A stretch of DNA of 58,535 bases, counting the filler, from Sphacelaria rigidula (taxonomy: Eukaryota): assembly GCA_964200075.2 (NCBI GenBank). It is 4 parts of 4 records of this genome, joined end to end, with 100 filler letters (N's around TTAATTAATTAA, not from the genome) between each part and the next. Parts side by side here need not be neighbours in the genome. Positions count along the whole stretch, not along the records: positions 1 to 14,561 come from CAXNAA020002180.1; 3 more parts are not named here. One strand, 5' to 3'. The notes below the pieces were generated by a model. It had not been told where the DNA came from. It ran no database searches and worked only from the letters and a program-made list of their open reading frames with translations. Position numbers and translations under genes: made by a program. Within the stretch, counting starts at the first letter, position 1. The number at the start of each line of letters is the position of its first letter. This document shows positions 3,831-57,464 of the stretch, in pieces.

Positions 3831-5367
3831 TGAAAATAGTAAAATGACCTTAGATGACCTGAAGTATCGACTGCCGAATATAGAGAGTATCCCAGAGTAG
3901 CTGGAGTACCAGCGACGAAACTCACTCGTACATGTACTCTTCTATATCCCTGGCATCGTTTAAAGCAGTCGTTTGCTCGCCAACCATCAGGACCGATGCA
4001 ACAAGTGTTAGCTTGAATTCGTCGGAGAAGCACAAGGGACCTACCGAAAGCTGGAGGTACTACGGAGACTTGAAGACGGAGGGGAAATCTCTTTCATCAT
4101 ATATTAGTATGTGCCTCTCCAAAGGACCTTTCTTACTGTGAAGATCGTAGCAACGTGACCTGGAGGAAATGTGGGACCGATCAGCGAAGGAGTACATGAT
4201 ACAACGCAAGAGTTCACCGAAACAATATACTCAATACATTCTTCGACTATCCATCTCCTTGATGCCTGAAAGCTACGAGCTGGGCCAGCCTCAAGTATCA
4301 CACTTCTCTAGCAGACGATAACGCTTACAGCTTCCCGAACCAACCTGATATGCGTTTATTACTGTGAAATGCCGACCAACCCGTTGGTGCGCGCTCTGCC
4401 GCGAGAAAAGAGACAAATTAACACAAAGTAACTCAACGTATGTGACCTCACCGACGACAAACCATTCTGCCAACATATATGTACATGTATCATTGCATCT
4501 TTTTTCCTAGTTGTGCCGAGTTTGCCCTGGCGGCAAGACATTGTTTCCCGCGCTTGTTTATTCAGTACATTAGGAAGGCTCAGCGGCACATCGCCGTTCA
4601 GGTTTGGGTGTCATCTGATACGTGTGACGCGTCTTCTCGCCACCGGAAGTCGGTCAAACTGGCCCTTTTTCGCGGGGTGTCGATTCCAAACCACAAAAGC
4701 CTTTTCGAGATCATGGAAAACTTGAAACAGGAACCCGAACCATAAAAGCCCATTGAAGATCACGGAGAACTTGAAACATCATTACCTTTGGCGGGGTGGT
4801 TTTTCCCCGTGTTTCTCTTTGTAGCGTTCTCGTTCATTTGGCAGCACGAACACACCGGTTATGCCGCCAATGTCACGAGAACATGGGAGCAAACCAGTTG
4901 AAACAATAAAATATTGCCTCAGCCTTAGTCAGCAGCAAACACAAGATCGTGCGATGGGCCGTTGGCGAGTTGAACAAGGCACAGCAGCATGGCAGCACAG
5001 GAATGGTTTGACGCAAAAAACAATTACCCTGTTCCGAAAAAAAGGCCCGGTAATGTGGAAGCCACAGTCATGTACAAAGAACATGCTAAGAGTGTTCCAC
5101 GCATTCCAATCTTTCGGGAGTACCTCGCGCTGTCATGTCCTTGTGGCACGAGAGCTACTTCGCACTCTGGTACCATGGAAATACCACACATGTCCTACGC
5201 CGGCGATTTCGCCGTCGGCCTTCGTCCGAAATTACCATATTTCTGAACGACGTACGATACCACATGCGATGTTGTGTACAGCCACGATCACTACTGTACA
5301 TTGAGATACAACAGCGTCTCTTCACCATACATTTCCGACTTTCTTCACCCCCAGGACGCCAGTACTA

Positions 5368-5438
5368 GTCAATGGTCAAATGACTAAGGCAAGCAACAAA
5401 TGAGTACGCCCCCCCCCCCCCCCCCCCCCCCCCCCCCC
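5368..5438 (+). mobile_element. Extremely 5'-truncated non-LTR retroelement (family A) with a C30 tail and TSD
   Basis: GTCAATGGTCAAATGACTAAGGCAAGCAACAAATGAGTACG plus C30; flanked by CCCCCAGGACGCC(A/G)GTAC at 5348-5365 and 5434-5451. Confidence 0.85.
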
Positions 5439-6169
5439 AGGACGCCGGTACCAACCTCCCGAAGGGGACCTGTGCACATACATATGATCTCAACTCCGCA
5501 ATCTGTCGGGATCGGACTTGCGGTCGTCAGCCCTTGTGGGCGTCTCATACGCCAGTTATACACAGGGATGCTACAGTGTCAGCCAAAAATGAACGACCCA
5601 TTTCGAAGATTTTTGAACAAACGTTTACACGTACATTCTACACTTCAGAGTACGCGAAAATGTGTTGAAATAGCGAAAGACATGCATTTTTGTCATAATA
5701 ATATTTGTTTTGTCAGAATCTTACACCGACTCTACTTTGCTCTTTACGTTCGTCCTCCTCGACTACTGCAATGATTTTCTGCGTCTTGATACAAACCTTG
5801 TGTCCATATTTCAGATCCTAACGCTTGCAAACGGGCCGCGCAGACGTAGTCAAGCGCCTACAAAAGCTTCGGACTGGCTCAGCTCTTAGAGGTGAACGTA
5901 CCATTCAAGGTACGCTTGAGGCGCCTGACGGGGAAAACTCTGGTTCGTGGGAACCACGACGCGTAGAACGATGAACAGAGTATCTGGAGAAAGACAATTT
6001 AATCCTCTATTACCCAAGCTTTTCAAAAATGAAAAATAATCAAACCACGTTGCAGGGGTAGATGTGGAGTATTGCTCTATTGATGTAAAAATGCGGCCAA
6101 AACACCCTCTGTTTCAATTACGGTACACTTTACGCAGCAGTTGATTTCTCGCGACCTTAGACGACCAGA

Positions 6170-11293: not shown

Positions 11294-11873
11294 ATGGAGG
11301 CAGCCTCTTTTTCTCCGGAGTGTGCACCCCCAACAAAAGCTCCGATCATTCTGCAAAGCGTGCCAACTGGCTTTCACACATTGCTCACGGCAGACTTCCC
11401 GCCGTTTTGGATTTGTGCTACCGTGAACAGTGAGTCTTCGCAAGAAGCACCACGCGAAGGACCTGACGGCCGACGTCGCAAAAGAGAGGTGCATCACCAA
11501 GCGCTGCTCCGAGCCGCCACATCACGGTACACAGGGCTACTCGGCGGAGTTCTGCTCCTAACATGCGACGGCGAGAGTGGTGAATGTGAAGAACAAGTGC
11601 GTTGACGAGGGCTGCTCCTTCAGACAGTCTCAAAGAGTAGCTGGGGGCAAGGAGGCGGAGTTCTGCTGTAAGCACGCCAGGGCGGGGATGGTAAACGTTG
11701 TGAACGAAAGTGCGGAAAAAAGGGTTGCTCAAAGCATTGTTCTTTTGGTGTAGTGGAAAGCAAGAATGCCGTTTGAGCACTCTAGGGCGAGAATGGTCAA
11801 TGTGGTCAACAAGAGGTGCGAAGACAAACGCTGCTTCAAACAGCCGTCTCAAGGAGTAGCTTGAAGCAAGAAG
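11294..11873 (+). pseudogene. Decayed 5' part of the EsV-1-7 repeat gene (probable original ATG plus ~4 broken repeats)
   Basis: GCGGAGTTCTGC (AEFC) and ATGGT.AAYGT (MVNV) units persist but are interrupted by frameshifts and stops (TAA ~11559, TGA 11862). Confidence 0.75.
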
Positions 11874-14522
11874 GTGGAGTTCTGCTTTGAGCGTACCAGG
11901 GCGGGAATGGCGGATGTTGCGAACAAGAGGTGCGGCGACGAGAGCTGCTCGAAGCATCCGTCTTTTGGTCTGGTAGGTAGCAAGAAGGCCGAGTTCTGCT
12001 CTGACCACGCCAGGTCGGGGATGGTTAATGTGGCGAGCAAGAGGTGCAGCGACGAGGGCTGCCTCACTCAGGCGTATTTTGGTCTAGTAGGAAGCAAGAA
12101 GGCCGAGTTCTGCTTTGAGCATGCCAGGACGGGGATGGCGAATGTTGTGCACAAGAAGTTTGGCCACGAGAGCTGCCCCAAACAGCCGTCTTTTGGTGTA
12201 GTGGGAAGCAAGAAAACGGAGTTTTGCTGTAAGCATGCCGGGGCCGGGATGGTAGACGTGAGAAGCAACAAGTGCGGCTACGAGGGCTGCTTCACGGAGC
12301 CGTCGCATGGTGTTGTGGGAAGCAAGAAGGCGGAGTTGTGCTCCAAACATGCCATGGCGGGGATGGTAAATGTGTTAAAAAAGGGGTGCGGCTACGAGGG
12401 CTGCTCGAAACATCCGTCCTTCGGTATAGCGGGAAGCAAGAAAGCGGAGTTTTGCTGTGAGCATGCCATGGCCGGGATGGTGGACGTGAGAAGCAAGAAG
12501 TGCGGCTACGAGGGCTGCTCCACGAAGCCGTCTTTCGGTTTAGTGGGAAGCAAGAACGGGGAGTTCTGCTCCAAGCACGCCATGGCGGGGATGGTGAGTG
12601 TGCGCAACAAGAAGTGCGGCTACGAGGGCTGCTCGACACAGGCGTCTCATGGATTGGTGGGCAGCAAGAAGGCGGAATTCTGCTTCGAGCATGCCAGGAC
12701 GGGAATGGTGAATGTTGGGAACAAGAAGTGCGGCTTCGAGGGCTGCTCCCTTCAGGCGTCTTTTGGTGTAAAGGGAAGCGAGAGAGCGGAGTTCTGCTCC
12801 AAGCATGCCAGGCCGGGGATGGTGGACGTGGGAAGCAAAAAGTGCGGCTACGAGGGCTGCTCCACGAAGCCATCTTATGGTGTGGTGGGAGACAAGAAAG
12901 CGGAGTTCTGCTTCAAGCATGCCATGGCGGGGATGGTGAATATCCGAGTTGGTATATGCGGCTACGAGGGCTGCTCCACGAAGCCAGCTTATGGTGTAGT
13001 GGGAAACAAGAAGGCGGAGTTCTGCTGCAAGCACGCCATTGCGGGAATGGTGGATGTTCGAGTTGGTACGTGCGGCTACCAGGGCTGCTCAAAACACCCG
13101 TCTATCGGTTCAGCGGGAAGCAAGAATGCGGAGTTCTGCTCCAAGCATGCCAGGTCAGGGATGGTTGATGTTGTGAACAAGAACTACAGCAACGAAGGAT
13201 GCTCCACGAAAGCGTCTTTTGGTGTAGCGGGAAGCAAGAAAGCGGAGTTCTGCTCCAAGCATGCCATGGCGGGAATGGTGAATTTGGTGAGCAAGAAGTG
13301 CGGCCACGATGGCTGCTCGACTCACGCGTCGTTTGGTGTAGTAGGAGGCAAGAAGGCGGAGTTCTGCTCCAAGCATGCCATGGCAGGGATGGTGAATGTC
13401 CGCGTTGGTATGTGCGGCCAAGACGGCTGCTCAAAGTATCCGTCTTTCGGTGTAGCGGGAAGCAAGAAGGCGGAGTTCTGCTTCAAGCATGCCATAGCGG
13501 GGATGGTGAATGTTCGAGTTAGTATGTGCGGCTATGAGGACTGCTCGACTCAGGCGTATTTTGGTGTGGTGGGAAGAAAGAAGGCGGAGTTTTGCTCCAA
13601 GCATGCCATGGCTGGGATGGTAAATGTCCGAGCTATCATGTGCGGCTATGAGAGCTGCTCAAAGCGTCCGTCTTTTGGTGCAGCCGGAAGCAAGGCGAAG
13701 TTCTGCTCCAAGCATGTCATGGCGGGGATGATGAATGTCCAAGTTGGTACGTGCGGCTACAAGGGCTGCTCTACTCGGCCGTCTTTTAGTGTTGTGGGAA
13801 GCAAGAAGGCGGAGTTCTGCTGCAAGCATGCCATTGCGGGGATGGTGGACGTGAAAAACAAGAAGAGCGGCTGGGAGGGCTGTTCTACTCAGGCATCTTA
13901 TGGAGTAGCTGGAAGCAAGGCGGAGTTCTGCTTCGAGCATTCCAGGGCGGAAATGATGAATGTTGTGAGCAAGACGTGCAGCTATGACGGCTGCTCTACT
14001 AAGGCGTTATATCGTTTAGTGGGAAGCAACAAGGCGGATGCCTGCTCCAAGCATGCCAGGGCAGAAATGTTGGATGTGGTGAACAAGAACTACAGCAACG
14101 AGGGATGCTCCAGCAGGTGGTCGTACGGTGTCGCGGGCAGCGCAAAGGCAGAGTTCTGCTCTGAGCATGCCACGGCGGTAATGGTGAATATGGGGAGCAA
14201 AACGTGCGGTGCAGTGGGGTGCTCCAAATGGGTTATCCACAAGAAGCACACCGTTGGTGAGGCGACGGTTTGCCGAGAACACGCTAGTGCACGCAACACA
14301 GCTGCGGTGTCTGATACCGCGAAGCTCAACACTGGGGAGGGCGCCCCCGGCCGTGGCCCGACGGAGGCCAGTGGAGAACGCGTTGCTGATGTACGAGGAA
14401 CAAAACGCACGCGCGCGGCATTCTCGGGCCCTGTTGCAAACGACTTTGGTGCTCGCCGCAATGCCGATGCCGGTCCCAGGCAGGGTGTAAGAATGCCGTT
14501 AACAACAAATTGTGAGAATTGA
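11874..14522 (+). CDS. EsV-1-7 cysteine-rich repeat protein, ~21 tandem 38-aa repeats, intronless ORF
   Basis: 882-codon ORF of GMVNVxxKKCGYEGCSxxPSFGVVGSKKAEFCSKHA units (C-x4-C-x16-C-x2-H), the EsV-1-7 motif of phaeoviruses and brown algae; first in-frame ATG at 11907; low-complexity basic C-terminus. May be part of a pseudogene. Confidence 0.9.
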   Translation: MEFCFERTRAGMADVANKRCGDESCSKHPSFGLVGSKKAEFCSDHARSGMVNVASKRCSDEGCLTQAYFGLVGSKKAEFCFEHARTGMANVVHKKFGHESCPKQPSFGVVGSKKTEFCCKHAGAGMVDVRSNKCGYEGCFTEPSHGVVGSKKAELCSKHAMAGMVNVLKKGCGYEGCSKHPSFGIAGSKKAEFCCEHAMAGMVDVRSKKCGYEGCSTKPSFGLVGSKNGEFCSKHAMAGMVSVRNKKCGYEGCSTQASHGLVGSKKAEFCFEHARTGMVNVGNKKCGFEGCSLQASFGVKGSERAEFCSKHARPGMVDVGSKKCGYEGCSTKPSYGVVGDKKAEFCFKHAMAGMVNIRVGICGYEGCSTKPAYGVVGNKKAEFCCKHAIAGMVDVRVGTCGYQGCSKHPSIGSAGSKNAEFCSKHARSGMVDVVNKNYSNEGCSTKASFGVAGSKKAEFCSKHAMAGMVNLVSKKCGHDGCSTHASFGVVGGKKAEFCSKHAMAGMVNVRVGMCGQDGCSKYPSFGVAGSKKAEFCFKHAIAGMVNVRVSMCGYEDCSTQAYFGVVGRKKAEFCSKHAMAGMVNVRAIMCGYESCSKRPSFGAAGSKAKFCSKHVMAGMMNVQVGTCGYKGCSTRPSFSVVGSKKAEFCCKHAIAGMVDVKNKKSGWEGCSTQASYGVAGSKAEFCFEHSRAEMMNVVSKTCSYDGCSTKALYRLVGSNKADACSKHARAEMLDVVNKNYSNEGCSSRWSYGVAGSAKAEFCSEHATAVMVNMGSKTCGAVGCSKWVIHKKHTVGEATVCREHASARNTAAVSDTAKLNTGEGAPGRGPTEASGERVADVRGTKRTRAAFSGPVANDFGARRNADAGPRQGVRMPLTTNCEN

Positions 14523-14561: not shown

Positions 14562-14661
14562 NNNNNNNNNNNNNNNNNNNNNNNNNNNNNNNNNNNNNNN
14601 NNNNNTTAATTAATTAANNNNNNNNNNNNNNNNNNNNNNNNNNNNNNNNNNNNNNNNNNNN
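14562..14661. other. Artificial contig linker (N44-TTAATTAATTAA-N44)
   Basis: Identical 100-nt spacer occurs three times; the 12-mer gives stops in all six frames. Confidence 0.97.
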
Positions 14662-19389: not shown

Positions 19390-19599
19390 GTAAGGATATG
19401 AGATAGGCTGCCGTGTTGAACTGAAAATACAGTTGGCCGAAATCTCTCTGTGATCGCTATTGAAGCCCGAAAATGCCATTTTCGGAAGGAATGATTTTCC
19501 CTGTTTCTACTTCTACGACATAACATGTGAAGAATGCTGAATATGAACTCTCTTTATCCTAAACAAGGTGGGAACCTAGAAGGTAGAGTTGGGAGAATG

Positions 19600-20010
19600 G
19601 GGAGGGGGGGGGTGCGTACTCATTTGTTGCTTGCCTTCGTCGTTCGACCGTTGACCACGCATTCCTTTCGAGACGGAGTGGGGCGGGGGGGGCATTCATG
19701 ATCTTGCATGCTGTCGTTATATAACCATTGGCCTCGCATCCCTACAAAGCCGGGATGGAGCACGCCGGGTTTCGCTGAACCAGGCTCGCTATCAATGACC
19801 AAGCGCGAAGCGCCGTGATGTGTTCGGCGAGTCTCATGAAGGGTGAGCTGCATCCTGCTAAAATTGTTCGGCCCGAAGCGTGCTGGTTATCTTGCATATG
19901 GATGGCAGCCTACAGTGAATTGCTGTTTATTTTCTGGTATCGCCACTTCCAGAGGCAGCCACGGCTTATACACTGTCTCATGGGTGTCTCACGATTTATA
20001 CACTACGTGG
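19600..20010 (-). mobile_element. Family B retroelement followed in tandem by a short family A 3' end, both with C-rich tails
   Basis: 19690-20010 aligns with 36370-36690 (reverse complement); 19615-19680 matches the family A terminus. Confidence 0.8.
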
Positions 20011-21519: not shown

Positions 21520-21650
21520 TCCCCTTTGCGCGGAATTGAGGTTCCCCCACCCCGCACAATATCTAGCCCGACCACCATCATGGTTGCCGCAAAAAACGCA
21601 AGCGCGCGCAAAACCCCCCCGATAACCCTGGTCGCCTAGCTTAGGCATCG
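21520..21650 (-). repeat. Dispersed repeat, reverse complement of 36215-36345
   Basis: Shared GACCACCATCATGGTTGCCGCAAAAAA, CCCCTTTGCGCG and CCTGGT.GCCTAGCTTA; a family B fragment is adjacent at ~21700-21755. Confidence 0.75.
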
Positions 21651-24312
21651 AGTGGCGTGTTTTGCAGCGTCACTGCCAAACGATGCCACCTCCATAGGGG
21701 GTCCGTCCTTACAAAGCCGCGACGGAGCACGCCAGGTTGTCGCCGGATCAGGCTAGTCGGTGGGGAAAGAGAGGGAAAGAGAAAATCTCTCGTTCCAAGG
21801 CAAGCTTTCCTACTTCGTCCGGACAGCTTGTGTCACGTCGACTGTGAACCCTTTCAACACCCCTGCTTCATGTTTCGAGGTATTATATTATACTGCACGG
21901 TGGTGTATTGTACTGTTATGGGTGCGCCTGACCCCCCACAATGGGCAAAAAAAGTGTCACCGACCGAAAGCACGAACGGACCGGAGATCTCGTTCATCCC
22001 CTGATTACACACGCCGCAAAATCCCCCAAAGTACTTGTGATTTGACTGGGGTTTTCACTTGACGATTTCCCATTTTCGCCGTCCCGGACTACGAACCACG
22101 GCGTGCTTCGGCTACTCACCGGCGTGTATTAGTCCAAGCTACAATCTGACAGGATTGTGGAACCAAAGGAGGTATAGTGATCGAGAAAGCCGCAAAAACC
22201 CCATGTTTTTTTCACTCAATTTGTTCTAAACCTCGGCTCCCGATGAGATTAAAAAATATGACTAGTCAAGTTGTAGCTGTCGTCTTGGCGCAGATGATGC
22301 AAAAAAGCGCATCTCAATCGATGGCCTTGGAGATGAGTAATCGGGGTAAGCGTTTGGGCTGTGAGCGCAAACAAGCGCCTCCGACCCTCGCCGGTTTCCC
22401 CGACATGTTGAAACATCAACCGTGTCAAACGGCCTCAGAATAGCAGTCTTACGCCAAAAGAGAAAAACAAGGGAAAAATTCGGAAGAGAACCCGACATCT
22501 TTTCGCCCCAATACGCACGCACACACCGCGCAACCCCAGATTCAGCAAGATGAGGTTGTTGTCCATAGTCTACATGACATGTGGTCGAAGTTTCAGCACG
22601 TAAAAGCACTAACAGCGCTTGCACGGCAGTGTCTCCTGAAGTGAGCACCTCTACAGGCGATACCAAGATAGGTACCGCGTAGAATGCCATCATCCAGAGT
22701 GTGCACAATACGGATCAATGTGTTCGTTTGCCGGGGCAGGGGCCACCCAGCAGGAAGTGAGCGTATCTGCGTGTCAACTTATGCACCCACTGACGTCTCA
22801 CGCAGTCTGGGCCGAGGGGACTGCGTTTTGAGGGCGTATCGATGGCATTGCCCAAAATCCCTATTTTGCTTCGTGCAAGTAGCGCACCACGTAAAACGTG
22901 CTGCCGCTCCGGGGATATGCTGTCTGTGTTGTGGTCTACTTCTGCGCCAAGTTTCAGGTTTGTTAGAACAGACACGGCCGAGGAATCCACAAGCAAAATG
23001 ACCCTTGATTTGTACTGAAAATACAGACTTGAACCCTGTTAAACCGTCGAAAGATACATGAGGTGCGTATGATTTTTGTATGCGGGAATCTTGGCAGTTG
23101 ACTTGCTTCTTTTTTTTCGGCGTAAGACTGATAGATTACACCCGTGGATGACTCTTAATAGTGCAGATGGTTGATTCATCGGATGTGTGGAATCTTCGAC
23201 CGAACCCCTAGAAGCTTCTGTGTCTGCGAGACATTTACCCCCGTCTGTGCATCGCTCGTGATGGTGGCAAGAGTAGCGCTCGTTCTCCTGCACCCGGTGC
23301 CATCACCACTCCACCATCGATAGCGTAGCTTAGTATCTAATCTCACGTGGCGGCAAGTATGGGCAAACTCTGAACTGAAGGAGAAAAAAAAGTCATAAAG
23401 CAAGCTGGCGTTAAAGCAGAGAGAGCAGTCTACGCGATGGCAACACACTCCAACAGCCGCCATAAACACGATAATGAGTCGCACGAACGAAACCAAGAAT
23501 CATCTTCGCGACCTTGTAGCAGCGAAGCGAACAAATGACAACACTAACCTTAACCCTGACCACAACGGAGGCATACCGAGAATCCTCGGGCAAGGCGGGT
23601 GCAACGTGTGCCCTGGACGAAGTGTGCGTTGACAAAAACGCGTTGTGGGTGCGCTAGGAGGATGCTAGGAGCACAGCCCCTATGAAAGGTCCGAATTTCG
23701 GTGTACACACTGAAATCAGTATGGACCAACTCACCCTCCCGAATGGTCAACGATACTGCGTCAAGACGACACAAAAGACAGCATAAAGTCGTCGGTCCAC
23801 TTTCACTGAAGCCACATGGCACCGAAGTCCCATTCATGTCTTTCAGTGCACCCACCCGTCCTAAGATACGCGTCTGTTGCATCGGCACTGGTGGGTGACA
23901 TGCGGCGGTTTGTTTTCATTCCCTCTTGGACCACAATATCTTTAGAATCCGATTAATATCATGCATACTCATGACATGAAAAGCCATGCCCACGGAACAA
24001 CGAACACACTTGCACAAGACGAGTTATTCATCCGCTAAAATTGTGGAACGATGGGATCCGATAAATCAAGCTCCTCAGCACATGACGAGGAGGTCGACCA
24101 ACATCGGCCCAGCCCACATCACACACGCAGCGAATGTACTCCAGTCGTCTGTGTAAGGGCCGTCCTCGTTGAAGTTCATCAGTACATATGGCTCTGTCGC
24201 ATGTTAAGCACATGTTGTTGGCCCAATTTCGATCCGCGTTCCCAAAAATAAATGATTCAGCGTTCTGGTTTCAGTTACCGGCGTTTGGCTACAAGTGTCC
24301 ATGGTTGATTTT

Positions 24313-24590
24313 TGTAGAGTAGTCCACCTCCAGTACACGTACGTGCAGGTTCATGATGATATACAAGTGGAACAATCTGCTGTAGGCGTTTTCTATTGGT
24401 TGACGGACTTGCGGGTCTGGTCGGCAGACTATGTGGATTTGAACATCACATGCTTCACGCATGTGTTTACTTCCGATAACGAAGGCTGTGTTTATGAGAA
24501 ACAACTGTCTTGAAGTCTCCAGGACCTGGTGAGGGAGGAAGCCCTTGGAGCAATCTTGTGACCTTGTTCTGAGTCCAGGAGGGCTCTATA
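24313..24590 (+). repeat. 5' LTR (278 bp)
   Basis: TGTAGAG...CTCTATA; about 12 substitutions and one 2-bp indel versus 28595-28874 (manual count). Confidence 0.92.
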
Positions 24591-24762
24591 ATAAACGTTT
24601 ATTAAGAGGAACCCGCTGGTTTCTAGAAGAGGTTTTTCAGCTGTTGACAGCTGCGGAAAAATTATATCAAAATTTGAACACAGCAGTGTGCACACTGTAA
24701 CGTGAGGGAGCTCGCTGGCAACGAAGAGACGGCTAGGTTGGCTGGAACTGTTACGTGCAGCT

Positions 24763-26466
24763 ATGGCAATGCGCAAGAAAGTGGGTGATGGCGATGCAGG
24801 CGAAGAGGTGAAGTTTAAGTTTACTGAGCTTATGCCTGCAGGATCGCTGAAAGCCCCAGAGTACGGACGGCACTTTAGCGAAAATGCGTCCCGACGTTTT
24901 TATCAGAAATACGTCGAGTATGAAGAGGCGGTCAAAATGAACAACAAAGGACGTAGCATGCAGGCCGTCTTATTGACTGTTTCTGAACTGGTGCCGAGGC
25001 ACATCCGTGCGTGTTTGTCACGCGAAATTTTTGACGGATCCGTGCTTGACGAAGATGATCTCAAGGAGGCACTAGGCCGACACGCGAAATGTTGGGAGGA
25101 TGAAGAGATTGATCCTTCAGTTGCTGTTGCTGGTGTGCGGAAAGCGTTGGCTGCCCGCAACGAGCAAACTGCAATGGGAAGAATAGAAGGGCAGTGGGGT
25201 GCCCTGGAGGAACTTTTTGCGGAGAATACTAGCGCTGAGCGTGCGTTCTGCGATGATGCAGATTTCAAACCAGGACCCGCTCAGATCATAACTCGGGAAA
25301 TCTTGAATGGACTGACCCCCCCCGAATTCAAAACTAAAGTCCTCAACATGTTGAACATGAAAGGGGGGTGGAAGGAGGACCCTGGGCTTGTGTTTAACAC
25401 GGCTCGGGAAGCAGCGGAGGCATGGAAGACGGTGGAAGCGGCGGATAAGCAGCGCCATCAGCAGCCGCAGCTGAAACAAAGGAGTGGCAACGGGACTTCC
25501 GGAAGCAAGCGCCAACCAAATGGTGGAAAAACGGCGAGCGGTGGAAATGGGACTACCAGTTCCGGAAAAACCCGCAAATCAGGCCCAAGCTATTCAGGTT
25601 GTTTCTCATGTGGAGACAAAGGCCACTTCGTGAAGGGTTGTAAGCAGCAAAGCCAAGCTGCTGCTCCACAACATACTACAGGTGGGCAGTCGAAGGCCGG
25701 CGACACGCAGCAGCAACAACAGCAGCTGTCGCATGGCCCTGGACAGGTGCCTCGCGGAGGGGGCACGAGTCCCGCCCCTACAAGGGCTGTCTTCTCAGCC
25801 GATGGACAAAGTGCTCTCAGCGGGGGGGCGACGTTGCCACCAGAACCGGTCGTTTCTACTGGTGGCGTGCAGCAGACCATCTCATCGCACTCTTTCCCGG
25901 GTTCGAACTCTGCGACGGTGCCAGCATGGAGATCGCTTAAAGCGGGTGAGGTGTCAGGGTTTCAATCTGAGGATCTGCAAGTAGATCACAAGGAAAGGTG
26001 GTATCTTGCCGACTTGTCTGTCCCGAGTGCAGGGGCAAAGGGTGTTTGTCCGGTCAAGGCTATTTTAGATTCAGGATCTGGACTTACGACCATGTCAGTG
26101 GATGTAGCGGCGAAATTACAAGCTATGGTTCCAGATGTTCGAGTGGTCACACCGATGGTTGATGAACAGCTGGTGACACTGGCTAACGGCAATGTTGAGC
26201 GCGTGAAGCAGAAAACTTGCCCTGTCCGAACCGCTTTACACACCAGCTGGGGACCGGTTGTGCTGGACCCATGTTCATATGTAGTCATGCCGGGTACAGA
26301 TGATGTGATCATCATGGGAAGCCCTACGCTGGAGACGCTGGGCATTGACGTGTTCAGTAGCTTAGGTGCCTGTGCACGTGCAAGAAACACTTCGGTGCGA
26401 GGTGTAAACACGCCTGATTTTACGGACTGTCAGCGTGTCAGTACCGCGGTTGACGCTTTACAGTAA
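24763..26466 (+). CDS. gag: Retrotransposon Gag + aspartic protease
   Basis: 567-aa ORF with CCHC knuckle CFSCGDKGHFVKGC and protease motif AILDSGSG. Confidence 0.88.
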   Translation: MAMRKKVGDGDAGEEVKFKFTELMPAGSLKAPEYGRHFSENASRRFYQKYVEYEEAVKMNNKGRSMQAVLLTVSELVPRHIRACLSREIFDGSVLDEDDLKEALGRHAKCWEDEEIDPSVAVAGVRKALAARNEQTAMGRIEGQWGALEELFAENTSAERAFCDDADFKPGPAQIITREILNGLTPPEFKTKVLNMLNMKGGWKEDPGLVFNTAREAAEAWKTVEAADKQRHQQPQLKQRSGNGTSGSKRQPNGGKTASGGNGTTSSGKTRKSGPSYSGCFSCGDKGHFVKGCKQQSQAAAPQHTTGGQSKAGDTQQQQQQLSHGPGQVPRGGGTSPAPTRAVFSADGQSALSGGATLPPEPVVSTGGVQQTISSHSFPGSNSATVPAWRSLKAGEVSGFQSEDLQVDHKERWYLADLSVPSAGAKGVCPVKAILDSGSGLTTMSVDVAAKLQAMVPDVRVVTPMVDEQLVTLANGNVERVKQKTCPVRTALHTSWGPVVLDPCSYVVMPGTDDVIIMGSPTLETLGIDVFSSLGACARARNTSVRGVNTPDFTDCQRVSTAVDALQ

Positions 26467-27500
26467 CCAGGAGGTCGGGCGGAGCCCGTTTATTCCTCAG
26501 TCGAGCGGTTGTTGTCGAGAAGTCCGGCGATGAGCATATCCCCGGAACAAGAGCTTGCTGAGCTGATGTTGCGCCGGAGGAGGCAGTAAAAGCCACCGCG
26601 GATAACGGCATATCGGAGAGCAACGTGAGCCAGATTCGTGAGCCTATACGGAACAGAGCGAGCGTTTTAAGGCGAGTGCTGCATGGTTATCCGCCTGCTC
26701 GCGTCGAGCCCTGGAGGGTGAAATTCACACCTGTTGCTGTGGAGGCAAAGGCTCGGCCGAGGGCGTACTTTCCGGTCAGGATGGCGTGGTTGGCACGCTG
26801 CATCGCAACATTGGTGGCGCTCGGGCTCGTGTACTGCAGTTTGCAGGTAGAGTGAGCGAGAGCGGCGATTGCAACGCCCGAGAAGTCCCGTTTTCGCTGG
26901 ATGAGTGCATACAAGGCGGGGGAGGAAGTTTCCTGTCAACACAAGGAGGTGATGCATGGTGCTCGCCCACGGAAGGTTTTCCATTTCAGTTTTCTCAGTG
27001 TTGGCGAGGGTAGTCCGCTGGGAGATAATGGCTGAGACAAAGGAGATCGGTTCAAGTACATATTGGTAAGGATGGATGACCCGGGCGACTTCGTGCGGTT
27101 GGAGCCCAAGGAGTCTTGTACGGCGGCAATGACGGTGAAGCATCTGTTGACATGGTGCAAAGCGCTGGGGCCGCAGGAGGGATGGGTCAGCGATACGGTA
27201 TCGCAATATGAGGATCGTGTGGTGAGAGTGCTCAAGAAGGCGCTGATGGATCGCAGATTCGTGGTGGCCAACTCGCGGTTGTCACATCGTGAATGTGAGC
27301 GAATGGTGCGTGACATTGTTCGTACCTTGAAGGTCATAATGCAGAGAGAAAGACGCGATGCCAACGCCTGGGTGGGTTTGGTGCTTGCGGTGCAGTGAGC
27401 ATTGCACACTGGTTTTCGGGACAGCTGTGAGAACTGTAGCTGCATCTATGATGCGAGGAGCGACTGTTGGAGTGGAAATGCTACTCTACGATGTGGACGA
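26467..27500 (+). pseudogene. pol: Degenerate pol: start of RT region and integrase core fragments
   Basis: PPARVEPWRVK...ARPRAY...LVALGLVY (pre-RT segment), then WVSDT...FVVANS...CERMVRDIVRTLK...WVGLVLAVQ*ALHT (integrase-like); many stops; no YxDD or RNase H. Confidence 0.75.
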
Positions 27501-28594
27501 GATTGTAGCCAGAGAGCTGCTGTTCTTCAGGAGGAGCGCAGGAGAGTTACAAGGCAGGCATTGCCTGAGGTGCTCGATGTTGCGGTGAGCGCCGGGTTGG
27601 GTGATGTTAAGGAGCAAGTACTAGTGGAATTGCTTGTTGAGAATGAGGAAGCACATTGTGACTTGTATACCTGAATCGTTTTGTGGACGATTGTAAGTAG
27701 TGGTGGTGGTGTGGTTCCTGGGCCTGTCTGTTGTGTTGCGCTGGTTGGCGCGCATGATACATGGTGGTTTCTGCAAAGAAGCTGCTCAGTGAAGTATGAG
27801 CATGCAGGTGTGACTGATGTTCATGGTGTCTGATGAAGAGTCAGAGTGAGGCAGTTTTCAATACACTGCTGTGTGCTGAATGAAATAAATCTCGGATATC
27901 ATTGTTCGCGCAAAAAGTGGAATCATCTTTGTGCGGTTTGCAGAAACTGACTGTAGGAGATGGTGATTGCTGCTGCTGGCGTGAAAATGAGCGGAAACTA
28001 CGAAATGCGTAGGCTTGTATGTGAACAAGTATAACGTGCGTATTTCCAGAGGTTGACGATAAAAGAAATTGTGCGCGAGTACAGTGATCTTTTATTGTGG
28101 TACATCTTTTATAGCTTGTCATATGTTTGGATAAGCGCATAGATGGTGTTTCACATCTGAAAAACGGAGAATGTGGATGTTGTGCCCATTTTTCTGGAAG
28201 GAGCACCGCATATTTGTTCTGAGCTGCGTCAGTTGGAACTGAGTCAAACGGTGCGGGCACGGTTGTAGGCAAAGTACGGTATCAAGCTTTGAGTGCATGG
28301 TATGCTCGAATGCTACAGTTTGAAACGGTATTATCCTTGGCGCGTTTGCTTTATGTGAGCATGCCACGACTCGAAATTGCCGTTGAATGAGTTACTGACT
28401 TCACTATATTCGATTGAAACGCTGTGTTCAAGTGTTGTTCAGCGTTTTGCGAATGATCATTTTCTTTGTGAACATGACATAGCATGGTCATGTGTCACCA
28501 ACAGGCGGACAAAGGTAGCATGAACGTGTTTGTCGGTGTCTACTGTATGTCAAACTCGCTTTCTACTTCGAGTAGTGCGGAGTTTTGGGGGTGC

Positions 28595-28874
28595 CGTAGA
28601 GTAGTCCACCTCCAGTACACGTACGTGCAGGTTCATGATGATATACAAGTGGAACAATCTGCTGTAGGCGTTTTCTATTGGTTGACGGACTTGCGGGTCT
28701 GATCGGCAAACTATGGGAATTTGAACATCACATGCTTCACGCATGTGGTTACTTCCGATAACGAAGGCTGTGTGTTTATGAATAACAACTGTCTTGAAGT
28801 CTCCAGGCCCTAGTGAGGGAGGAAGCCCTCGGAGCAATCTTGTGACCTTGTTCTGAGTCCAGGAAGGCTCTATA
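28595..28874 (+). repeat. 3' LTR (280 bp)
   Basis: Direct repeat of 24313-24590. Confidence 0.92.
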
Positions 28875-29067: not shown

Positions 29068-29220
29068 ATTAGGGATGCGAGGTCACTGGTTGTATGACTA
29101 TGGCATGCGTGATCATGAGTACACTTCCCCCCCCCCCCTCCCCTGTGCTCCGTCTCGAAAGGGATGCGTGGTCAATGGTCAAATGACTAAGGCAAGCAAC
29201 AAATGAGTACGCCCCCCTCC
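29068..29220 (+). mobile_element. Family B-type 3' end with C-tail, followed by a family A 3' end with C-tail
   Basis: GGGATGCGAGGTCACTGG...GATCATGAGTACACTT-Cn, then GCTCCGTCTCGAAAGGGATGCGTGGTCAATGG...ATGAGTACG-Cn. Confidence 0.8.
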
Positions 29221-29320
29221 NNNNNNNNNNNNNNNNNNNNNNNNNNNNNNNNNNNNNNNNNNNNTTAATTAATTAANNNNNNNNNNNNNNNNNNNNNNNN
29301 NNNNNNNNNNNNNNNNNNNN
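29221..29320. other. Artificial contig linker
   Basis: Same 100-nt spacer. Confidence 0.97.
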
Positions 29321-32238: not shown

Positions 32239-32489
32239 GAGTCATCCTACGATAGGGGGGGGGTATTTGATTGCACGAAAAAAGAGGCTCATAGATGTGT
32301 CAGACGACTTGCCACACTCGCGGTGCGCTTGTATTTGGTTACAAACGGTTTCAAGCAGTATGAATGAGCGATATATATCTAAAACAAGTTCGTTCGAGCA
32401 ACCGTTGCTGATTTCAACGACGGGTTGACGTGGAATTTTGTGCAAGAAGTGGCCCGAAATACCTCCCCCCCCATACCGTAGGATGACTC
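32239..32489. mobile_element. Intronic MITE with ~30-bp TIRs
   Basis: GAGTCATCCTACG...G8TATTT and its inverse at 32458-32489; another terminus at 43811-43878. Confidence 0.8.
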
Positions 32490-32953
32490 GACTTGTTCGT
32501 ATATCTGGGTAAAACCCCCGATGTACATTGGACGCTCTCAGTGCGGAACGTTCACAAGCATGGGTGCAAAGTTCCACCAGAATATCCGGCCTATGAGTGA
32601 CGCGTCGGATAACTTTGAGTGTGAAATGAGCGGAGGTAATAAGAAAATGCCGTAGATGGAAGAGAAACGATGCTTGTCATCAACAGTTGCCTTAGTTGCC
32701 GGGTGCCGTGTTTCATTATGATGTGTGTTTTACTATTGTGGACGACGTATAGAATGACTGAATTTGCCCCAAATCCAGGAAACAGCCTCTGGAAAATATC
32801 AACATCGGGCAGTGAAGAGCTGGTCGGGCAAGGGCCGACGCGAATCCGTTGGGTTTAGGTGGCCTTTTTCGGTGTGATTGCTCTCCACCCTGGGCGCCGC
32901 TCTCCTCGCTTTGCTCTTAACATTTCCGCATTATCCTCACTGAATCCGTGCAG

Positions 32954-34084: not shown

Positions 34085-34118
34085 GTAAGTGACAGGCTAC
34101 GATTCGCATGATAATACG

Positions 34119-34155
<37 letters not shown>

Positions 34156-34973
34156 ACAAGTGCCCCACGAGCCCACCCCTCCCCGCACGCGGCGGCNNNN
34201 NNNNNNGTATGGGAGGGAGAGGGGGGCGCCGCCCCTCCCGAGAACAGCCGTTGATGTGGCCCCCCCCCCCCCCCCCCCTGCCCACTCCCCGTGAAGTAGG
34301 TCGGCACCAAAAATTCGGCGCTGCAAGCGGCGGGTGCACTTAAACCACCGGATCTTACACAGGTTCCCAAACGATGCATGTTCAGGCGCTCCCTTTGTAG
34401 CGTAAATCTGGCTATCCTGCAACGTTGTGAACAGCGGATGAGAGACCAAAAGTGCCGTTTCGATGGAAGGAGTTTTACTGGGTTCTTACGCATAGATTTT
34501 ACCCAACGCAATATCGCACATATCAGCGGTAGATAGCAGTAGGATATATACCAGCTGGAGGTCACCGATGGTGTTTCTTGCACTTTCCAAGAAATTGCTC
34601 GGGTGTTTGTCCCAAACCAATTGGGTGCACTTGTTCGTCAATCTCCACATTTCTCTATATTTTTTCGGCCACATGAACGCCAATCCCAGACGATTGACTT
34701 CCTCTGCGTCTAACAAAGTATGCGAGCCCGACAGCCACTTAATGCCAAACCAGCGCAGCCTCCGCCGAAACAGTATCCCACAAGGCTAACTCCCTCCCGA
34801 TACCAAACGATCGGTTGGGTCGTCCAGCGGATATCGGTCCGCCAAACACTGACGTGATCCGCATGCCTAATTATAAACTCCCAAATGCTTGCCAAGACGC
34901 TCGGAAGTGAGATCACTCCTCACGGTCAACTGTGCTCAACGTTTATCCGTGCACGTCTTGTCAAATTGGGCAG

Positions 34974-36088: not shown

Positions 36089-36214
36089 GTATCATAGACA
36101 TGAAGTGTAGGACTTCGAGGTGTATCCTTTCCTATTTGGTCGTATTTTCACCCCTCGCCTTCTTTTGAGGGTTGGCGTCGGTTAGCAACGATACTATAGA
36201 ACAAGCCACCCAGT

Positions 36215-36700
36215 GCGTAAGCTAGGCAACCAGGTTAACTTTTTTCGTTTGAGCCCTTTCTTGCATTTTTTGCGGCAACCATGATGGTGGTCAAGCTAGA
36301 TTATATTGTGGGGGGGTGGAGAACCCCAACTGCGCGCAAAGGGGGTGATCGCAATTTAATTTAAAACGTAGTGTTTATGTGGTAAACATCCATGGGGCAG
36401 TGTGTAACCCGTGGCTATCTGGAAGTGGCAATATCAAATAAGGAAGCAACTCATTCAAGACTGTCATCCGCATGCAAGATAGCTAGTACGCTCCGGGCCG
36501 AGCAACATTAGCAGGATGTAATTCACCCTTCGTGAGATTTCCCGAACACATCACGGCGCGTCGCGCTTGGCGATTGATTGCTAGCCTGGTCCGGCGAAAC
36601 CCCGGCGTGCTCCGTCCCGGCTTTGTAGGGATGCAAGGTCAACGGTGTAATGACTACGTCATGCAAGATCATGAGAACATCCCCTCCCCCACCCCCCCTC
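36215..36700 (+). mobile_element. Intronic repeat block ending in a family B retroelement with C-rich tail
   Basis: 36215-36345 is the reverse complement of 21520-21650; 36370-36690 is the reverse complement of 19690-20010. Confidence 0.75.
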
Positions 36701-37196
36701 ACCGTCCTCTCCCTTTCCCTCCCCTCGGGATCAATCCATGGTCTCAAGTCGTCAATCCACCCACCTTTCTCCCGATACCTGCCGGACAGTATTATCGAGC
36801 CGTAAAAAGGATCGGATCTCCCCTAACCCCTAGACTTTGACCGAATTTTAACTTGATACACACGTCCTCACACCTTTAACGGCGCGAAGCTGACCCTAGA
36901 CGAAAAAGATCATGGTGTTGTATCTGTGGGTATCCAAGCACATGAAGGTCGCCCGAACTGGCCGTTGGTGTACCAATTTGACCACCATGATGCAAATTTT
37001 GTTGTCGAATCATTCACCCTTGGAATGGTCAAATTAGTTCTCTAAGAAATGAACACTAGGTGAAGGTCGTGGAGCGCGTTTTCGACTTCCCCACCTTTGT
37101 AGCGTGGTATGCTCATTACCTCCTGTACTACCGGTGGATGTTTTTGTCCGACACCATGCCATCTTGTGACCGTGAACGATACCCTCTTTCTGACAG

Positions 37197-37486
37197 TGTT
37201 TTCAAGACCGGCCACAACTGCTCCCACGCCTGGGCCCACGCCGGGTCCCACGCCGGGTCCCACGCCGGGTCCCACACCGGGTCCCACGCTGGGTCCCACG
37301 CCGGGTCCCACGCCGGGTCCCACGCCGGGTCCCACGCCGGGTCCCACACCGGGTCCCACGCCAGGTCCCACACCGGGTCCCACGCCAGGTCCCACGCCGG
37401 GTCCCGCGCCTGCTTCAACTCCAGTCTCGGAGCCTTCTTCGTCCGGCGTTACCGCAACAGCGTCAGCCGTCTTAGTAGCAGCTCAG
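37197..37486 (+). CDS. Exon encoding the (PTPG)15 stalk
   Basis: CAG|..|GTGAGA; 15 copies of a 12-bp CCCACGCCGGGT unit at 37223-37402. Confidence 0.8.
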
Positions 37487-42482: not shown

Positions 42483-43878
42483 GTGAGTTCTGCTCAGCGT
42501 CGCATGCATTGCTGACGCCTCTGCGTTGAACTGAAACCGCGAAGATGACATAATATACGAACGTCCATCTACGCTCGTCGGAGGTGACTGTCGCTGCACT
42601 TCCCCGGGCACGACTGTACATCACCCATGGACCGGTGTAGTCGAGATGTCTTTTTGTGGACTGTCGCGCACGTTCGTGTTTGCGTATGTATGAGGAACTC
42701 CGCTATTCATTCGGTACGGTCCCGAACATCCTCGCCGCCGTGACTGAGCCCTCACACGTGCCGGTAGAGGGGGGTGTGAGTTCAACAACCCCTTGCGAGC
42801 CGTGCACGTGGTATTGCATTGTGCGTTTGGTTGCAGGTGTACGAGTTTGCACTGAATGTCAGCACGGAAAATTCCAGCGAAGTGTATGGTAATTACCGGT
42901 CGGACATCGCGACCACCGCTGTTAAGGTGGGAAGAGTCGTTCGCAGGCCTAGACTTTGTCAAAATTATTGCGTCTGGTGAAATGAGCCGTGTACTTGAAA
43001 TCTGTGTCGAAAGTAATTAGCAGTGATACCAGTCTCGACCGTCAGACTTGGTACTGGATGCACCTCGTGAACACAGTTTCAGTTCGAATGCCAAAATATT
43101 AGAGGGGTAGCGCGATCGATATGTACCGGCTTCAAGTATAACCTTACACTGATATTCATGCCGACTTAGAGTTCACACGTTGAAGTTCATTCATTGAACG
43201 GATATGACAGGTTACCTCATATGAAGCACCGCGAGTAATTCTCACGCCGAAAGAGGAAGATGCCAAGCATAACCCTACAAAACAACTGGTTATCTACGGT
43301 GAAGTTTCCGAGCAGTCAGCTTCCTACGACCGCCTTTGGACGCAGGTGAGACCGGTGGACCATCGACAGTACCCACCTGTTGCTCGCCAGCTTCTGCCAT
43401 GCGCTTGAGTGATGTAACGCCTGATGTGCTAGCCGTATCGGTTTTACACGAACCGACAATCAACTGCTGACAGGATACAGATGGAAAGCGACGACATGAG
43501 AGACGATGGCGACGGTTTCGTCTGAACGGCCCACGTGCGTGCTCATATTCTTCGTGTATTACTGCTAGCTCTGCATCGCCCATCGACAGAACCCTTCCAT
43601 GTTGCTTGTACACGGTCTACAACTACCCAGGTGGACGGTGACTTGCGGACGGCTGAACAAGACTGGACCACGTTCTTCTCCACGGTCCAAACTGGGTAAC
43701 GTACCATCTTCAACTGCACCCTCGTTAGTTTCAAAATATACCGAATAATGAGAATTCATGACACAATCCTCCGTTCCATAACGCTGGACAGGTGTTGAGG
43801 TTTTCCAATGGAGTCATCCTACGATAGGGGGGGGGGGTATTTTGGGCCATTTGTTGCTCGAAATTTGGAGTCAGATCG

Positions 43879-43978
43879 NNNNNNNNNNNNNNNNNNNNNN
43901 NNNNNNNNNNNNNNNNNNNNNNTTAATTAATTAANNNNNNNNNNNNNNNNNNNNNNNNNNNNNNNNNNNNNNNNNNNN
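43879..43978. other. Artificial contig linker
   Basis: Same 100-nt spacer. Confidence 0.97.
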
Positions 43979-45392: not shown

Positions 45393-45827
45393 GTCAGTGC
45401 ACTGGATGCGAGTCTGGCTCCAGCCTCTTTCTCTTTAATCGCCGTCTAGGCGGTTTGCTGCGTACATTCAGTACCATACAGTACCTGCACATGTAGGTGA
45501 CTGCGAGATGAAGTGCACAACTGACTTTTGCACAGCAAACAGGCCGCCTTTCGCACACTCACTGCTCGTTGCGATCTAATCGAGTGTCTCGCACAGTCTG
45601 TGTAGAGGAGTACGATTCTCTTGTACTGTACTGCACTGCACTACACTGTACAGCACTGTCTGAACCACTGTGATGTGCCGCATACTGTGCTGTTGTCGGG
45701 GCCCAAACTACTGTAACTGTATATTGCCTAATAAGCTCTTATCGGGGGCGCCTCACCTGCTACAGTAAATACGGGTTGTCACACGTTGCGGACGGATGGG
45801 TCTTTTTGAGGATGAGCCTTGAACTAC

Positions 45828-46065
45828 CGATTCTGAATACTGGGGTTGGAAACTAAAATGGAGTTCAAGCGGTATATCTTTTTTGCAGGAATGGCGCGAA
45901 ACAGTTACACCAAGGTGAACCCCCCCCCCCCCCCCTCAAATCTGCAGCAGTTGAGCAGTTGTGGCTAGGTGCACCGAAGGAATGCGGTGTACACGCGTGT
46001 CGATGACGATACCACCGGAGGAGTAACGGCAGAGAGGAAGCTCTTTTGTAAAGGACTCTCAAGAG
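45828..46065 (+). repeat. Repeat family E end, inverted relative to 47298-47520
   Basis: GGAGTTCAAGCGG...TGCAGGAATGGCGCGAAACA...GTGTACACGCGTGTCGATGACGATA pairs with the reverse complement at 47298-47520. Confidence 0.8.
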
Positions 46066-46649
46066 CTGCGGGGAGGGTGGCTTTCCCGCTCCCCCGACAT
46101 GTATTAAAGACACGGCGACAGAGCATTTGCAAGCTCATGTAACACTGACGGGGGCACAGCGAGTTTCTCCTGATAAAAAACGCGTGTTTCCACCTGCAAA
46201 CCGTTTCAGGTGTATTGCTTTCTATTTAAAACGGGAACCTCTTCATTTTACTTCGGTTCAATACTGCTTGCTTTATGCCAATCCCAGCATAGTTTGGTAT
46301 TACTGTTCAACAGTATCTTCGCACGTTTGACTGAACCCAAAGCGGCCACTTTCCCGCAGCTCTTGAGAGTCCTTTGCATTGTGTGGAATGAGTTGGAAAA
46401 AAATATAACTGTTCAATTTTGACAACCATTGTCAATTTCGGCGTTGATACGAGTACGGTGACTGTACAGACGACATTCAGTACAGACAATAGAGCAACGA
46501 AAGCTAGCTATGATCGGATTTGTCTGGCGTACTGCCGACAGCGTTGCTTGGAAGCCACAAGACCTTTGCGGTCGACGGTTGATGGCATGGGTCTCAAATG
46601 CAACGACAAGTGGTTGATCATAGAGCACTCTTGTTCCTCGTGAAACATA

Positions 46650-47520: not shown

Positions 47521-47569
47521 TCTTGGGAACGTTTATAAGCATCGAAGTATTCCACACCCCGGACATATC

Positions 47570-54520: not shown

Positions 54521-54955
54521 CGGTTTGGGGGGTGTACTCATGACCATGCGTGCCATCGTCGGTTTGGGGGTGGGGGGGGCGGGGGGGGGCGTACTCATTT
54601 GTTGCTTGCCTTAGTCGTTTGACCATTGACCACGCATCCCTTTCGGCACCGTTCCTACTCCTAATATAGACACCTCCAACATTCTGGCGCTCATTACGTT
54701 TCTTCCATACATTACACGAAAACCATTTACATATCTTATCCCCGTCCTGTTTCGCCGTCTCNNNNNNNNNGTCCCGCATTTTCCCCTCTAGCACGTCCCG
54801 TTCCTCCTTGCACAGTTCACATTCTGCCACTATTTGACTTCTGCTCTCTATTACTTTGCCACAGAGGCAGTTCTGTCCATCTACTTCCCCGTCCTTTCGA
54901 CGACTGGTATATCTCTTTCTTTTTTCTGGCAGGTCTAGGTTCCCCACCCGAAATC
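54521..54955 (-). mobile_element. 5'-truncated LINE (family A; C-terminal Cys-rich ORF2 segment) with C-tail, plus a 27-nt family B tip with its own TSD
   Basis: RFRVGNLDLPEKRKRY...CLCGKVIESRSQIVAECELCKEERDVL...NVWKKRNER resembles the post-RT C-terminal zinc-knuckle region; CGGTTTGGGGG duplicated at 54521-54531 and 54560-54570. Confidence 0.85.
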
Positions 54956-55618
54956 GGGGGGGGGCGGGGAGGGGTTGCGGCATCACTCATAATGTCCTTG
55001 CTGGAGGAGAATGAATATGTCAAGGTGACGCCTTGAGCTGTCTACCGCTTCCAAGCTCGCCTTTTGAGTCCACAGCAGTGACCGGAGTGATGTACACTGT
55101 TTACGCGATGCCATGGTGTACCGCTGGATGAATATATACAAGGACGAGTTGTAGTTGTCACTTTTTCCAACAGTGATGCGAGTGTGAGCGTTAGGCTTGA
55201 CTTTTGTATGCATCGGCGTGTTTTCAATTAGATGTCTATAGATCCCCAATGCAGCCTTGGCCTGCCAATACGAGGGCCTTCAGGTCTTCGCAGGAATTCC
55301 GATAAAGAAACAATCATCCACAGCGTTGTGAACATAGTTCGCGAACCCTTTTCGGTATGTCGCAGGTGTCGAAATCTGAATGAATAGCTTGCGCGAAAAC
55401 AGCGGAAGATAAAACCGACCTCGAGACGGCATAGCAATGGTGTCTTCCTTGAACAAAGAAGTGGAAGCCAAACGAGTTTTGGAGTAGAAATCGACGAACG
55501 TGCGTCAAAGACCCCTCTCCCCGATTCGCTGTGAACGGTGCGATTATAAGCAAGCCTTCAACCGTACCGCTAAAACCAAAATATTTTCTTCATCTACTAA
55601 TACTGCTCCTCGAGACAG

Positions 55619-57365: not shown

Positions 57366-57464
57366 GGTACTCACGATCTTGCACGCCGTGATCGCAAGAC
57401 TGTTGACCTCGCGTCCGTACAAAGCCAGGACGGAGCACGCTGGGGTTTCGCCCCGACCAGGCGA
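57366..57464 (-). mobile_element. Family B retroelement 3' end with 16-bp TSD
   Basis: Matches 36590-36680; GCG(A/G)ATTGGGGGGGTG at 57350-57365 and 57465-57480. Confidence 0.8.

Follow-up and report, generated by a model that had tools for sequence, protein, structure and literature searches.

Homopolymeric C tails and C-run landing sites in a LINE and its short partner from the brown alga Sphacelaria rigidula

The tail of L1 comes from polyadenylation, and L1 primes reverse transcription by pairing its poly(A) with a run of T. Where a LINE tail is not poly(A), the known cases are repeats of two to seven nucleotides, and a very short 3' UTR is typical of RTE. The microsatellite-targeting LINEs of the R1 clade (Waldo, Mino, Kibi and Koshi) insert at simple repeats of the same kind as those at their own 3' ends; these repeats are di- to tetranucleotides, and the elements are strictly site-specific.

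Ohshima's review, in the text available, treats non-A simple-repeat tails as the norm for RTE-X, and its Table 3 gives (CA)n, (CAA)n, (CCAT)n, (ACAATG)n and (CTTGTAA)n for green-algal RTEX elements and (TTG)n for plant RTE, with no (C)n tail in that table (PMC3747384). In Ectocarpus, RTE-X LINEs are the most abundant LINE group, with seven families and 16,418 copies, LINE-type elements form the most abundant single families, and RTEX-N1_Ec32 is an abundant non-autonomous element of about 600 bp with a 5' part of unknown origin and a 3' end shared with autonomous LINEs (PMC12477816). The main text of the Ectocarpus paper is silent on tails, 3' UTR length and target sites. The elements from S. 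rigidula described below are unusual in having a homopolymeric C tail 5 nt past the stop codon, together with insertions at C-runs.

The window, by which we mean the whole stretch of DNA analysed (58,535 nt, GC about 50%), is not a single locus. Four pieces of about 14.56 kb each are joined by N44-TTAATTAATTAA-N44 linkers at 14562-14661, 29221-29320 and 43879-43978, and features crossing a linker are cut artificially. A search with the 35-nt terminus of the first repeat family, family A, allowing up to three mismatches, found four matches, with none expected from 100 shuffles of the stretch. All four copies, ending at 5408(+), 19615(-), 29211(+) and 54590(-), finish in AAATGAGTACG and pass immediately into a C-run or C-rich tail:

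5366..5408 (+): copy E1, 5'-truncated, about 41-43 nt, with the last codons of the LINE ORF, the stop TGA and GTACG
5409..5438 (+): tail of E1, pure C30, the last five C possibly belonging to the target-site duplication (TSD)
19615..19678 (-): copy of 64 nt, within the C-rich tail of a family B copy
19614-19599 (-): tail of the 64-nt copy, C-rich, CACCCCCCCCCTCCCC
29145..29211 (+): copy of about 67 nt, within the tail of the family B copy 29073..29123
29212-29220 (+): tail of the 67-nt copy, CCCCCCTCC, cut by the joint between parts, not by biology
54971-54990 (-): C-rich tract preceding the longest copy
54590..54970 (-): longest copy, about 380 nt, with coding sequence for the C-terminal Cys-rich region of the LINE ORF
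54589-54561 (-): tail of the 380-nt copy, C9-G-C8-A-C5, its end being the 5' TSD of a nested family B fragment

An earlier note on this DNA had described family A as ending in a C-run and not in poly(A), as variably 5'-truncated, and as encoding a LINE-like Cys-rich C-terminus in its longest copy. These descriptions hold: the C-run end is found in 4/4 copies in the stretch and 5/5 external copies, the lengths (about 41-43, 64, 67 and about 380 nt) share one common 3' end, and the 380-nt copy, which is interrupted by a 7-nt deletion and an N9 gap, codes for a LINE C-terminus (best protein matches at E 4e-38). The position 29146, given there as a copy end, marks that copy's start instead, the end being 29211. 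The closest protein matches of family A and its LINE are from Sphacelaria and Ectocarpus, and a tblastn search of the stretch with 127 LINE proteins found no LINE coding sequence besides the family A copies.

Beyond the stretch, we queried public contig collections with 20 nt of the terminus that include no tail C. This gave six loci (L001-L006). Homology extends over 351 to about 5,000 nt in five of them (L001, L002, L003, L005 and L006); L004 hits the terminus pattern but is a chance match, unrelated to the LINE. The five homologous copies come from unrelated marine metagenome and MAG contigs, and in every one a C-run directly follows the end motif (C8, C10, CCTC7..., C9TC9... and C13). E1 is 100% identical to the 3' end of L006. 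Beyond the C-run, the flanks are mutually unrelated in 4/4 copies in the stretch and 5/5 external copies. The A-run that would mark an L1-clade element follows the end motif in 0/9 copies, and no conserved downstream sequence or poly(A) was found after the C-run across these nine copies from at least five independent assemblies, so the C-run is not a fixed internal segment. Viral contigs gave no matches to the terminus pattern and no relatives by protein. Two bacterial MAGs, G001 (L005 and L008-L010) and G002 (L006), include contigs carrying this eukaryotic LINE and therefore contain contaminating DNA of the algal host; searching both by pattern gave one further match, the doubtful L012 (10 nt).

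The stretch itself holds only the last 380 nt of the LINE, and its coding capacity is seen in the external near-full-length copy L006:116-4261(-), which has an open frame of 1382 aa. The protein of the external copy (P0007) matches Exo_endo_phos at 193-415 (E 8e-11), Exo_endo_phos_2 (E 1e-7) and RVT_1 at 763-1012 (E 7e-32), placing the endonuclease domain N-terminal to the reverse transcriptase (RT). The best solved relatives of this RT are the L1 ORF2p and R2 RTs, and it has 68% identity to an Ectocarpus protein; the homologues retrieved bear no clade names. L001 and L002 have frames similar to that of L006. All three frames, along with the proteins P0001 and P0005, end in ...NGQMTKASNK, followed by the TGA of AAATGAGTACG; this TGA is thus the stop codon of the ORF, and the 3' UTR consists only of GTACG (5 nt) and (C)n. 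For annotation, this means that the 3' terminus of the element lies 5 nt past the stop codon. Two other proteins, P0002 (...SEYSPPTP) and P0003 (...NEHAPLP), read through the tail in another frame as a proline-rich peptide, and P0003 has a second truncated A copy after the tail. The assignment of these repeats to the non-LTR retroelements, proposed from the stretch alone, is therefore borne out by the near-full-length L006, with its APE-type endonuclease and LINE-type RT. Variable 5' truncation, variable-length TSDs, a common 3' end and the absence of terminal repeats are likewise as found in APE-type LINEs. Judging from these frames, family A is the 3' end of an apparently autonomous APE-type LINE with a single long ORF and a C-terminal Cys/His motif.

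The second family, B, is represented by the following copies:

19693..20008 (-): about 316 nt, judged full length against 36366-36679; followed by the tail C8GC4 (19680-19692)
29073..29123 (+): truncated, about 51 nt, ending in CATGAGTACA; C-rich tail at 29124-29144
36366..36679 (+): about 314 nt; decayed C-rich tail from 36680 to about 36730
54533..54559 (-): fragment of 27 nt, inserted where the tail of the 380-nt A copy ends
57366..57464 (-): truncated, about 100 nt

The two long copies, 20008-19693 (-) and 36366-36679 (+), have the same 5' start and 79% identity over 335 columns, so B is a discrete element of about 320 nt. It showed no LINE coding similarity by tblastn with the 127 LINE proteins. 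Its terminus is CATGAGTACA plus a C-run, with GTACA where A has GTACG, and its last 75 nt or so are a diverged copy of the last 75 nt of the LINE, which are coding in A; the 3' ends of B are 76-78% identical to the last 65 nt of the LINE. A and B were previously listed as separate families, and two families they are, but not independent ones, as the last 75 nt or so are common to both. B resembles a SINE in sharing its 3' end with a partner LINE. A Pol III-type head (tRNA, 5S, 7SL or snRNA derived) was not recognized: Rfam gave no match for the head of B at E up to 1 (36300-36720), and no tRNA was found in the stretch. It may be that family B has a diverged Pol III-type head. As read from their 3' ends, A and B have the classic relation of a LINE and its LINE-tailed non-autonomous passenger. 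An RNAalifold comparison of ten A and B 3' modules gave a weak consensus fold (-6.8 kcal/mol, with a compensatory change in 1/12 pairs), and recognition of a structured 3' module is therefore unsupported. A further repeat family, containing TTGCGGCAACCATGATGGTGGTC, lies at 21540-21780 (-) and 36200-36345 (+), beside B-related sequence at both places; at 21706-21756 B is represented by its middle part alone.

The likeness to the Ectocarpus elements extends to the brown-algal host, the frequent 5' truncation and the short partner sharing the LINE 3' end, while the partner lengths differ (about 600 bp for RTEX-N1_Ec32 vs about 320 nt for family B; PMC12477816, main text). A and B probably correspond to the Ectocarpus RTE-X LINEs and RTEX-N1, matched by description and not by sequence (PMC12477816). 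In the available text of Ohshima's review, RTE and RTE-X elements likewise combine an APE endonuclease and RT with non-poly(A) repeat tails, and their SINE-like partners have about 80-100 nt in common with the 3' end of the LINE, with recognition called 'stringent', much as B shares the end of its LINE (PMC3747384). A non-poly(A) simple-repeat tail and a LINE-tailed non-autonomous partner, both RTE-X features, are present here (cf. PMC3747384, PMC12477816), and the LINE probably belongs to the RTE-X clade. It differs from the RTE and RTE-X elements so described in that the repeat unit is the single base C, the last 75 nt are coding and the UTR is 5 nt (PMC3747384). In the literature we found no description of (C)n or C-rich tails on non-LTR elements, although bracketed spellings of 'poly(C)' could escape such a search. 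The suggestion that the behaviour had not been described thus stands in part: the families are very probably already curated as Ectocarpus RTE-X and RTEX-N1, and non-A tails are known, but the homopolymeric C tail and the landing in C-tracts seem undescribed within the literature searched (PMC12477816, PMC3747384, as far as the available text of each goes).

We recomputed the TSDs from coordinates, using 395 random window pairs at similar spacing as the null. The longest match had a median of 7 in the null, reaching at least 13 in 7/395 pairs and at least 16 in 5/395, and the high values came from tandem repeats. Three insertions have resolved TSDs:

5348-5365 / 5434-5451 (+): TSD of E1, 18 nt with one mismatch (17/18), C5 + AGGACGCCAGTAC
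54570-54560 / 54531-54521 (-): TSD of the 27-nt B fragment, 11/11, CCCCCAAACCG
57480-57465 / 57365-57350 (-): TSD of the ~100-nt B copy, 16 nt with one mismatch, CACCCCCCCAAT(C/T)CGC

The claim that these three TSDs begin with a C-run on the element strand is confirmed at recomputed lengths of 18, 11 and 16 nt; the runs are C5, C5 and CAC7, and the preceding base is A in all three (n=3). In each TSD one copy directly borders the start of the element and the other its tail, and the three insertions are young and short. Clear C-initiated TSDs were not found for L005, the two long B copies, L009 and L010, all of them old or nested. The target of E1 had C5 and the insertion carries C30, so the run cannot come from the target alone and is a feature of the element. 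The B copies 57366-57464 and 54533-54559 have 0-1 nt of tail past the TSD, and these two of the three therefore need no C tail on the RNA. Tail length spans 0-1 nt to C30 among the A and B copies.

Apart from the insertions with clean TSDs, most copies sit in the C-rich tails of earlier copies. There are nested B-tail-A-tail arrays at 19599-20008 and 29073-29220, and a stack at 54990-54521 (-) consists of a C-rich tract, the 380-nt A, its tail and the 27-nt B. In L002 the LINE tail adjoins TATCGTAGGATG, a motif that also follows the own C-run of another repeat (three copies in the stretch), so this LINE landed in a pre-existing C-run. Among the 53 C-runs of at least 6 on both strands, 9 are preceded by TAC(N0-2), vs a background of 4.1%.

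C-runs occur in other repeats as well. One of these, at 32240-32490 and 43812-43850 and also in L002 and L009, has a C-run (C8-C11) and then TATCGTAGGATGACTC; its copies at 32255 and 32465 point towards each other, as terminal inverted repeats do, and in L002 it is the LINE tail that precedes the TATCGTAGGATGACTC motif. Within 45821-47522 there are inverted repeats of about 200 nt with 85-90% complementarity, about 1.3-1.5 kb apart, each with a C16/G7 run; they look like a TIR element, and therefore not every C-run is a LINE tail. One more C-tailed sequence deserves listing:

34100..34155 (+): possible third C-tailed family, ending in GATAATACG, then pure C37 at 34119-34155

Neither a 5' limit nor a TSD was found for this element, and it showed no LINE coding similarity by tblastn. 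A C19 run at 34260-34278, 100 nt past the C37 run, lies beside an N10 gap.

The remaining features of the stretch are of other kinds. At 11865-14522 (+) an 885-aa open frame encodes EsV-1-7 cysteine-rich repeats (Pfam PF19114, E 2.5e-290), about 20 in number and recurring every 114 nt; such repeats are typical of brown algae and their phaeoviruses, and together with the closest protein matches of the LINE they mark the host as a brown alga or a near relative of one. At 37176-37463 a 12-nt unit (CCACGCCGGGTC-like) is repeated in tandem about 20 times. Direct repeats of about 290 nt, 94-95% identical, at 24314-24590 and 28596-28874, enclose a 586-aa gag/aspartic-protease-like frame with weak Pfam matches (24706-26466), and 24314-28874 is probably an LTR retrotransposon with an interior too short for a full pol.

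How might the C tail take part in integration? On balance we think it probable that a LINE and its passenger carry a homopolymeric C tail whose pairing with a G-run at the nick would prime target-primed reverse transcription. The endonuclease would cut the bottom strand directly after a G-run, on its 3' side (5'-GGGGG^T), as the three TSDs suggest (n=3), and the nicked G-run would then pair with C residues at the 3' end of the template and prime cDNA synthesis. The shared 3' module of about 75 nt may be what the RT recognises, in which case the mobilisation of B would be explained. The C-run itself is probably copied from the genomic tail of the donor, and probably not added after transcription, and it would be lengthened and shortened by slippage, as in other LINEs with simple-repeat tails. 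Tail length would vary because the position at which the primer pairs on the C tract varies and because of slippage; the C tails of old copies would be the longest C-tracts available, so that new copies stack tail-to-head.

A different route to the same ends would start from an RNA without a C tail, with an RT or terminal-transferase activity adding untemplated G at the nick before engaging ...GUACG, the C-run at the target then reflecting the specificity of the endonuclease alone. Such a route would suit the extreme variability of tail length, from 0-1 nt to C30/C37, and the fact that the stop codon is followed by neither a 3' UTR nor an evident termination signal. Template jumping and extension without a template have been documented in a non-LTR RT (PMC8857657). 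Long single-base additions, however, are not described in the available text of that study (PMC8857657), the interruptions in the tails of older copies look like decayed inherited runs, and the presence of the same base in target and added run is more simply explained by pairing. We consider this route unlikely.

It is a good deal less than likely, too, that the 3' C-run is target DNA and no tail at all, the element having a strict specificity for C-tracts like that of the microsatellite-specific LINEs; we would give this about the credence due to an outside chance. The 3' C-run does equal the TSD's own run in 2/3 resolved insertions, and copies are nested in C-rich tails and in the C-run of another repeat, but the insertion at 5348-5451, with a C5 target and a C30 copy, contradicts this reading, and external copies carry C8-C13 beside unrelated flanks. 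That the C-run lies inside the element, or is an artefact of assembly or sequencing, as the breaking of short-read contigs at the C30 run and the ending of one copy at a joint between parts might suggest, is extremely improbable, given the same end in nine copies from at least five independent assemblies, each with different flanks, the TSDs in three cases, and the lack of conserved downstream sequence or poly(A).

Returning to priming by a C tail, the likeness to L1 and Alu is considerable: the tail is a homopolymer, the TSD begins with the base of the tail, as the nicked strand ends in a complementary run, new copies often land in old tails, and there is a non-autonomous passenger. The tail base is A in those elements and C here, and recognition by L1 is 'relaxed' (tail only), whereas the shared 75-nt module suggests stringent recognition in the present case. 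Compared with Waldo, Mino, Kibi and Koshi, short C5-C7 runs in otherwise unrelated sites suffice as targets. The earlier note had put forward a G/C mirror of L1, and this is upheld to the extent that the C-initiated TSDs show the geometry expected of G-run priming on a C tail (n=3); from the sequences at hand, a mechanistic mirror of L1 is plausible. We are more tentative about the full form of the idea, which we regard as possible but rather doubtful: that in brown algae the template RNA would end in homopolymeric C and the endonuclease would cut 5'-G(n)^T, making a true G/C mirror of L1 that seeds the genome with C/G homopolymers. In its boldest version, a cellular or element-encoded activity may add the C tract to the RNA post-transcriptionally. 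We know of no C-tailing comparable to the polyadenylation of L1, and of no precedent for a C-tailing pathway on RNA.

The LINE and its partner are very abundant, with at least 10 copies in the 58 kb sampled. When contigs of four public runs were aligned to 4900-5900, the C-run at 5399-5448 was masked as a repeat and was spanned by no contig, and no contig joint corresponding to an empty site appeared. Summed contig word depth in run X1 was 2.2 million over 5376-5409, the last 34 nt of the element, vs 61 for unique flank; a run whose label names a different organism likewise gave high depth at the element end, and these values are a rough indicator, not a copy number. The region just upstream of the insertion at 5366 (4920-5340) is itself a high-copy repeat, with depth in the tens of thousands and many variant positions in three runs.

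In practical terms, the LINE and its partner break short-read assemblies where their C-runs are long. Homopolymer runs of at least 10 in the stretch number 9 for C/G vs 5 for A/T. In this genome C/G and A/T homopolymers are unusually close to parity, and the elements, being extremely abundant, probably shape that balance. If the proposed mechanism is true, a pure C tail with C-initiated TSDs would mean that the logic of L1 is not tied to A or to polyadenylation, and these elements would offer a natural system for separating tail pairing from endonuclease specificity.
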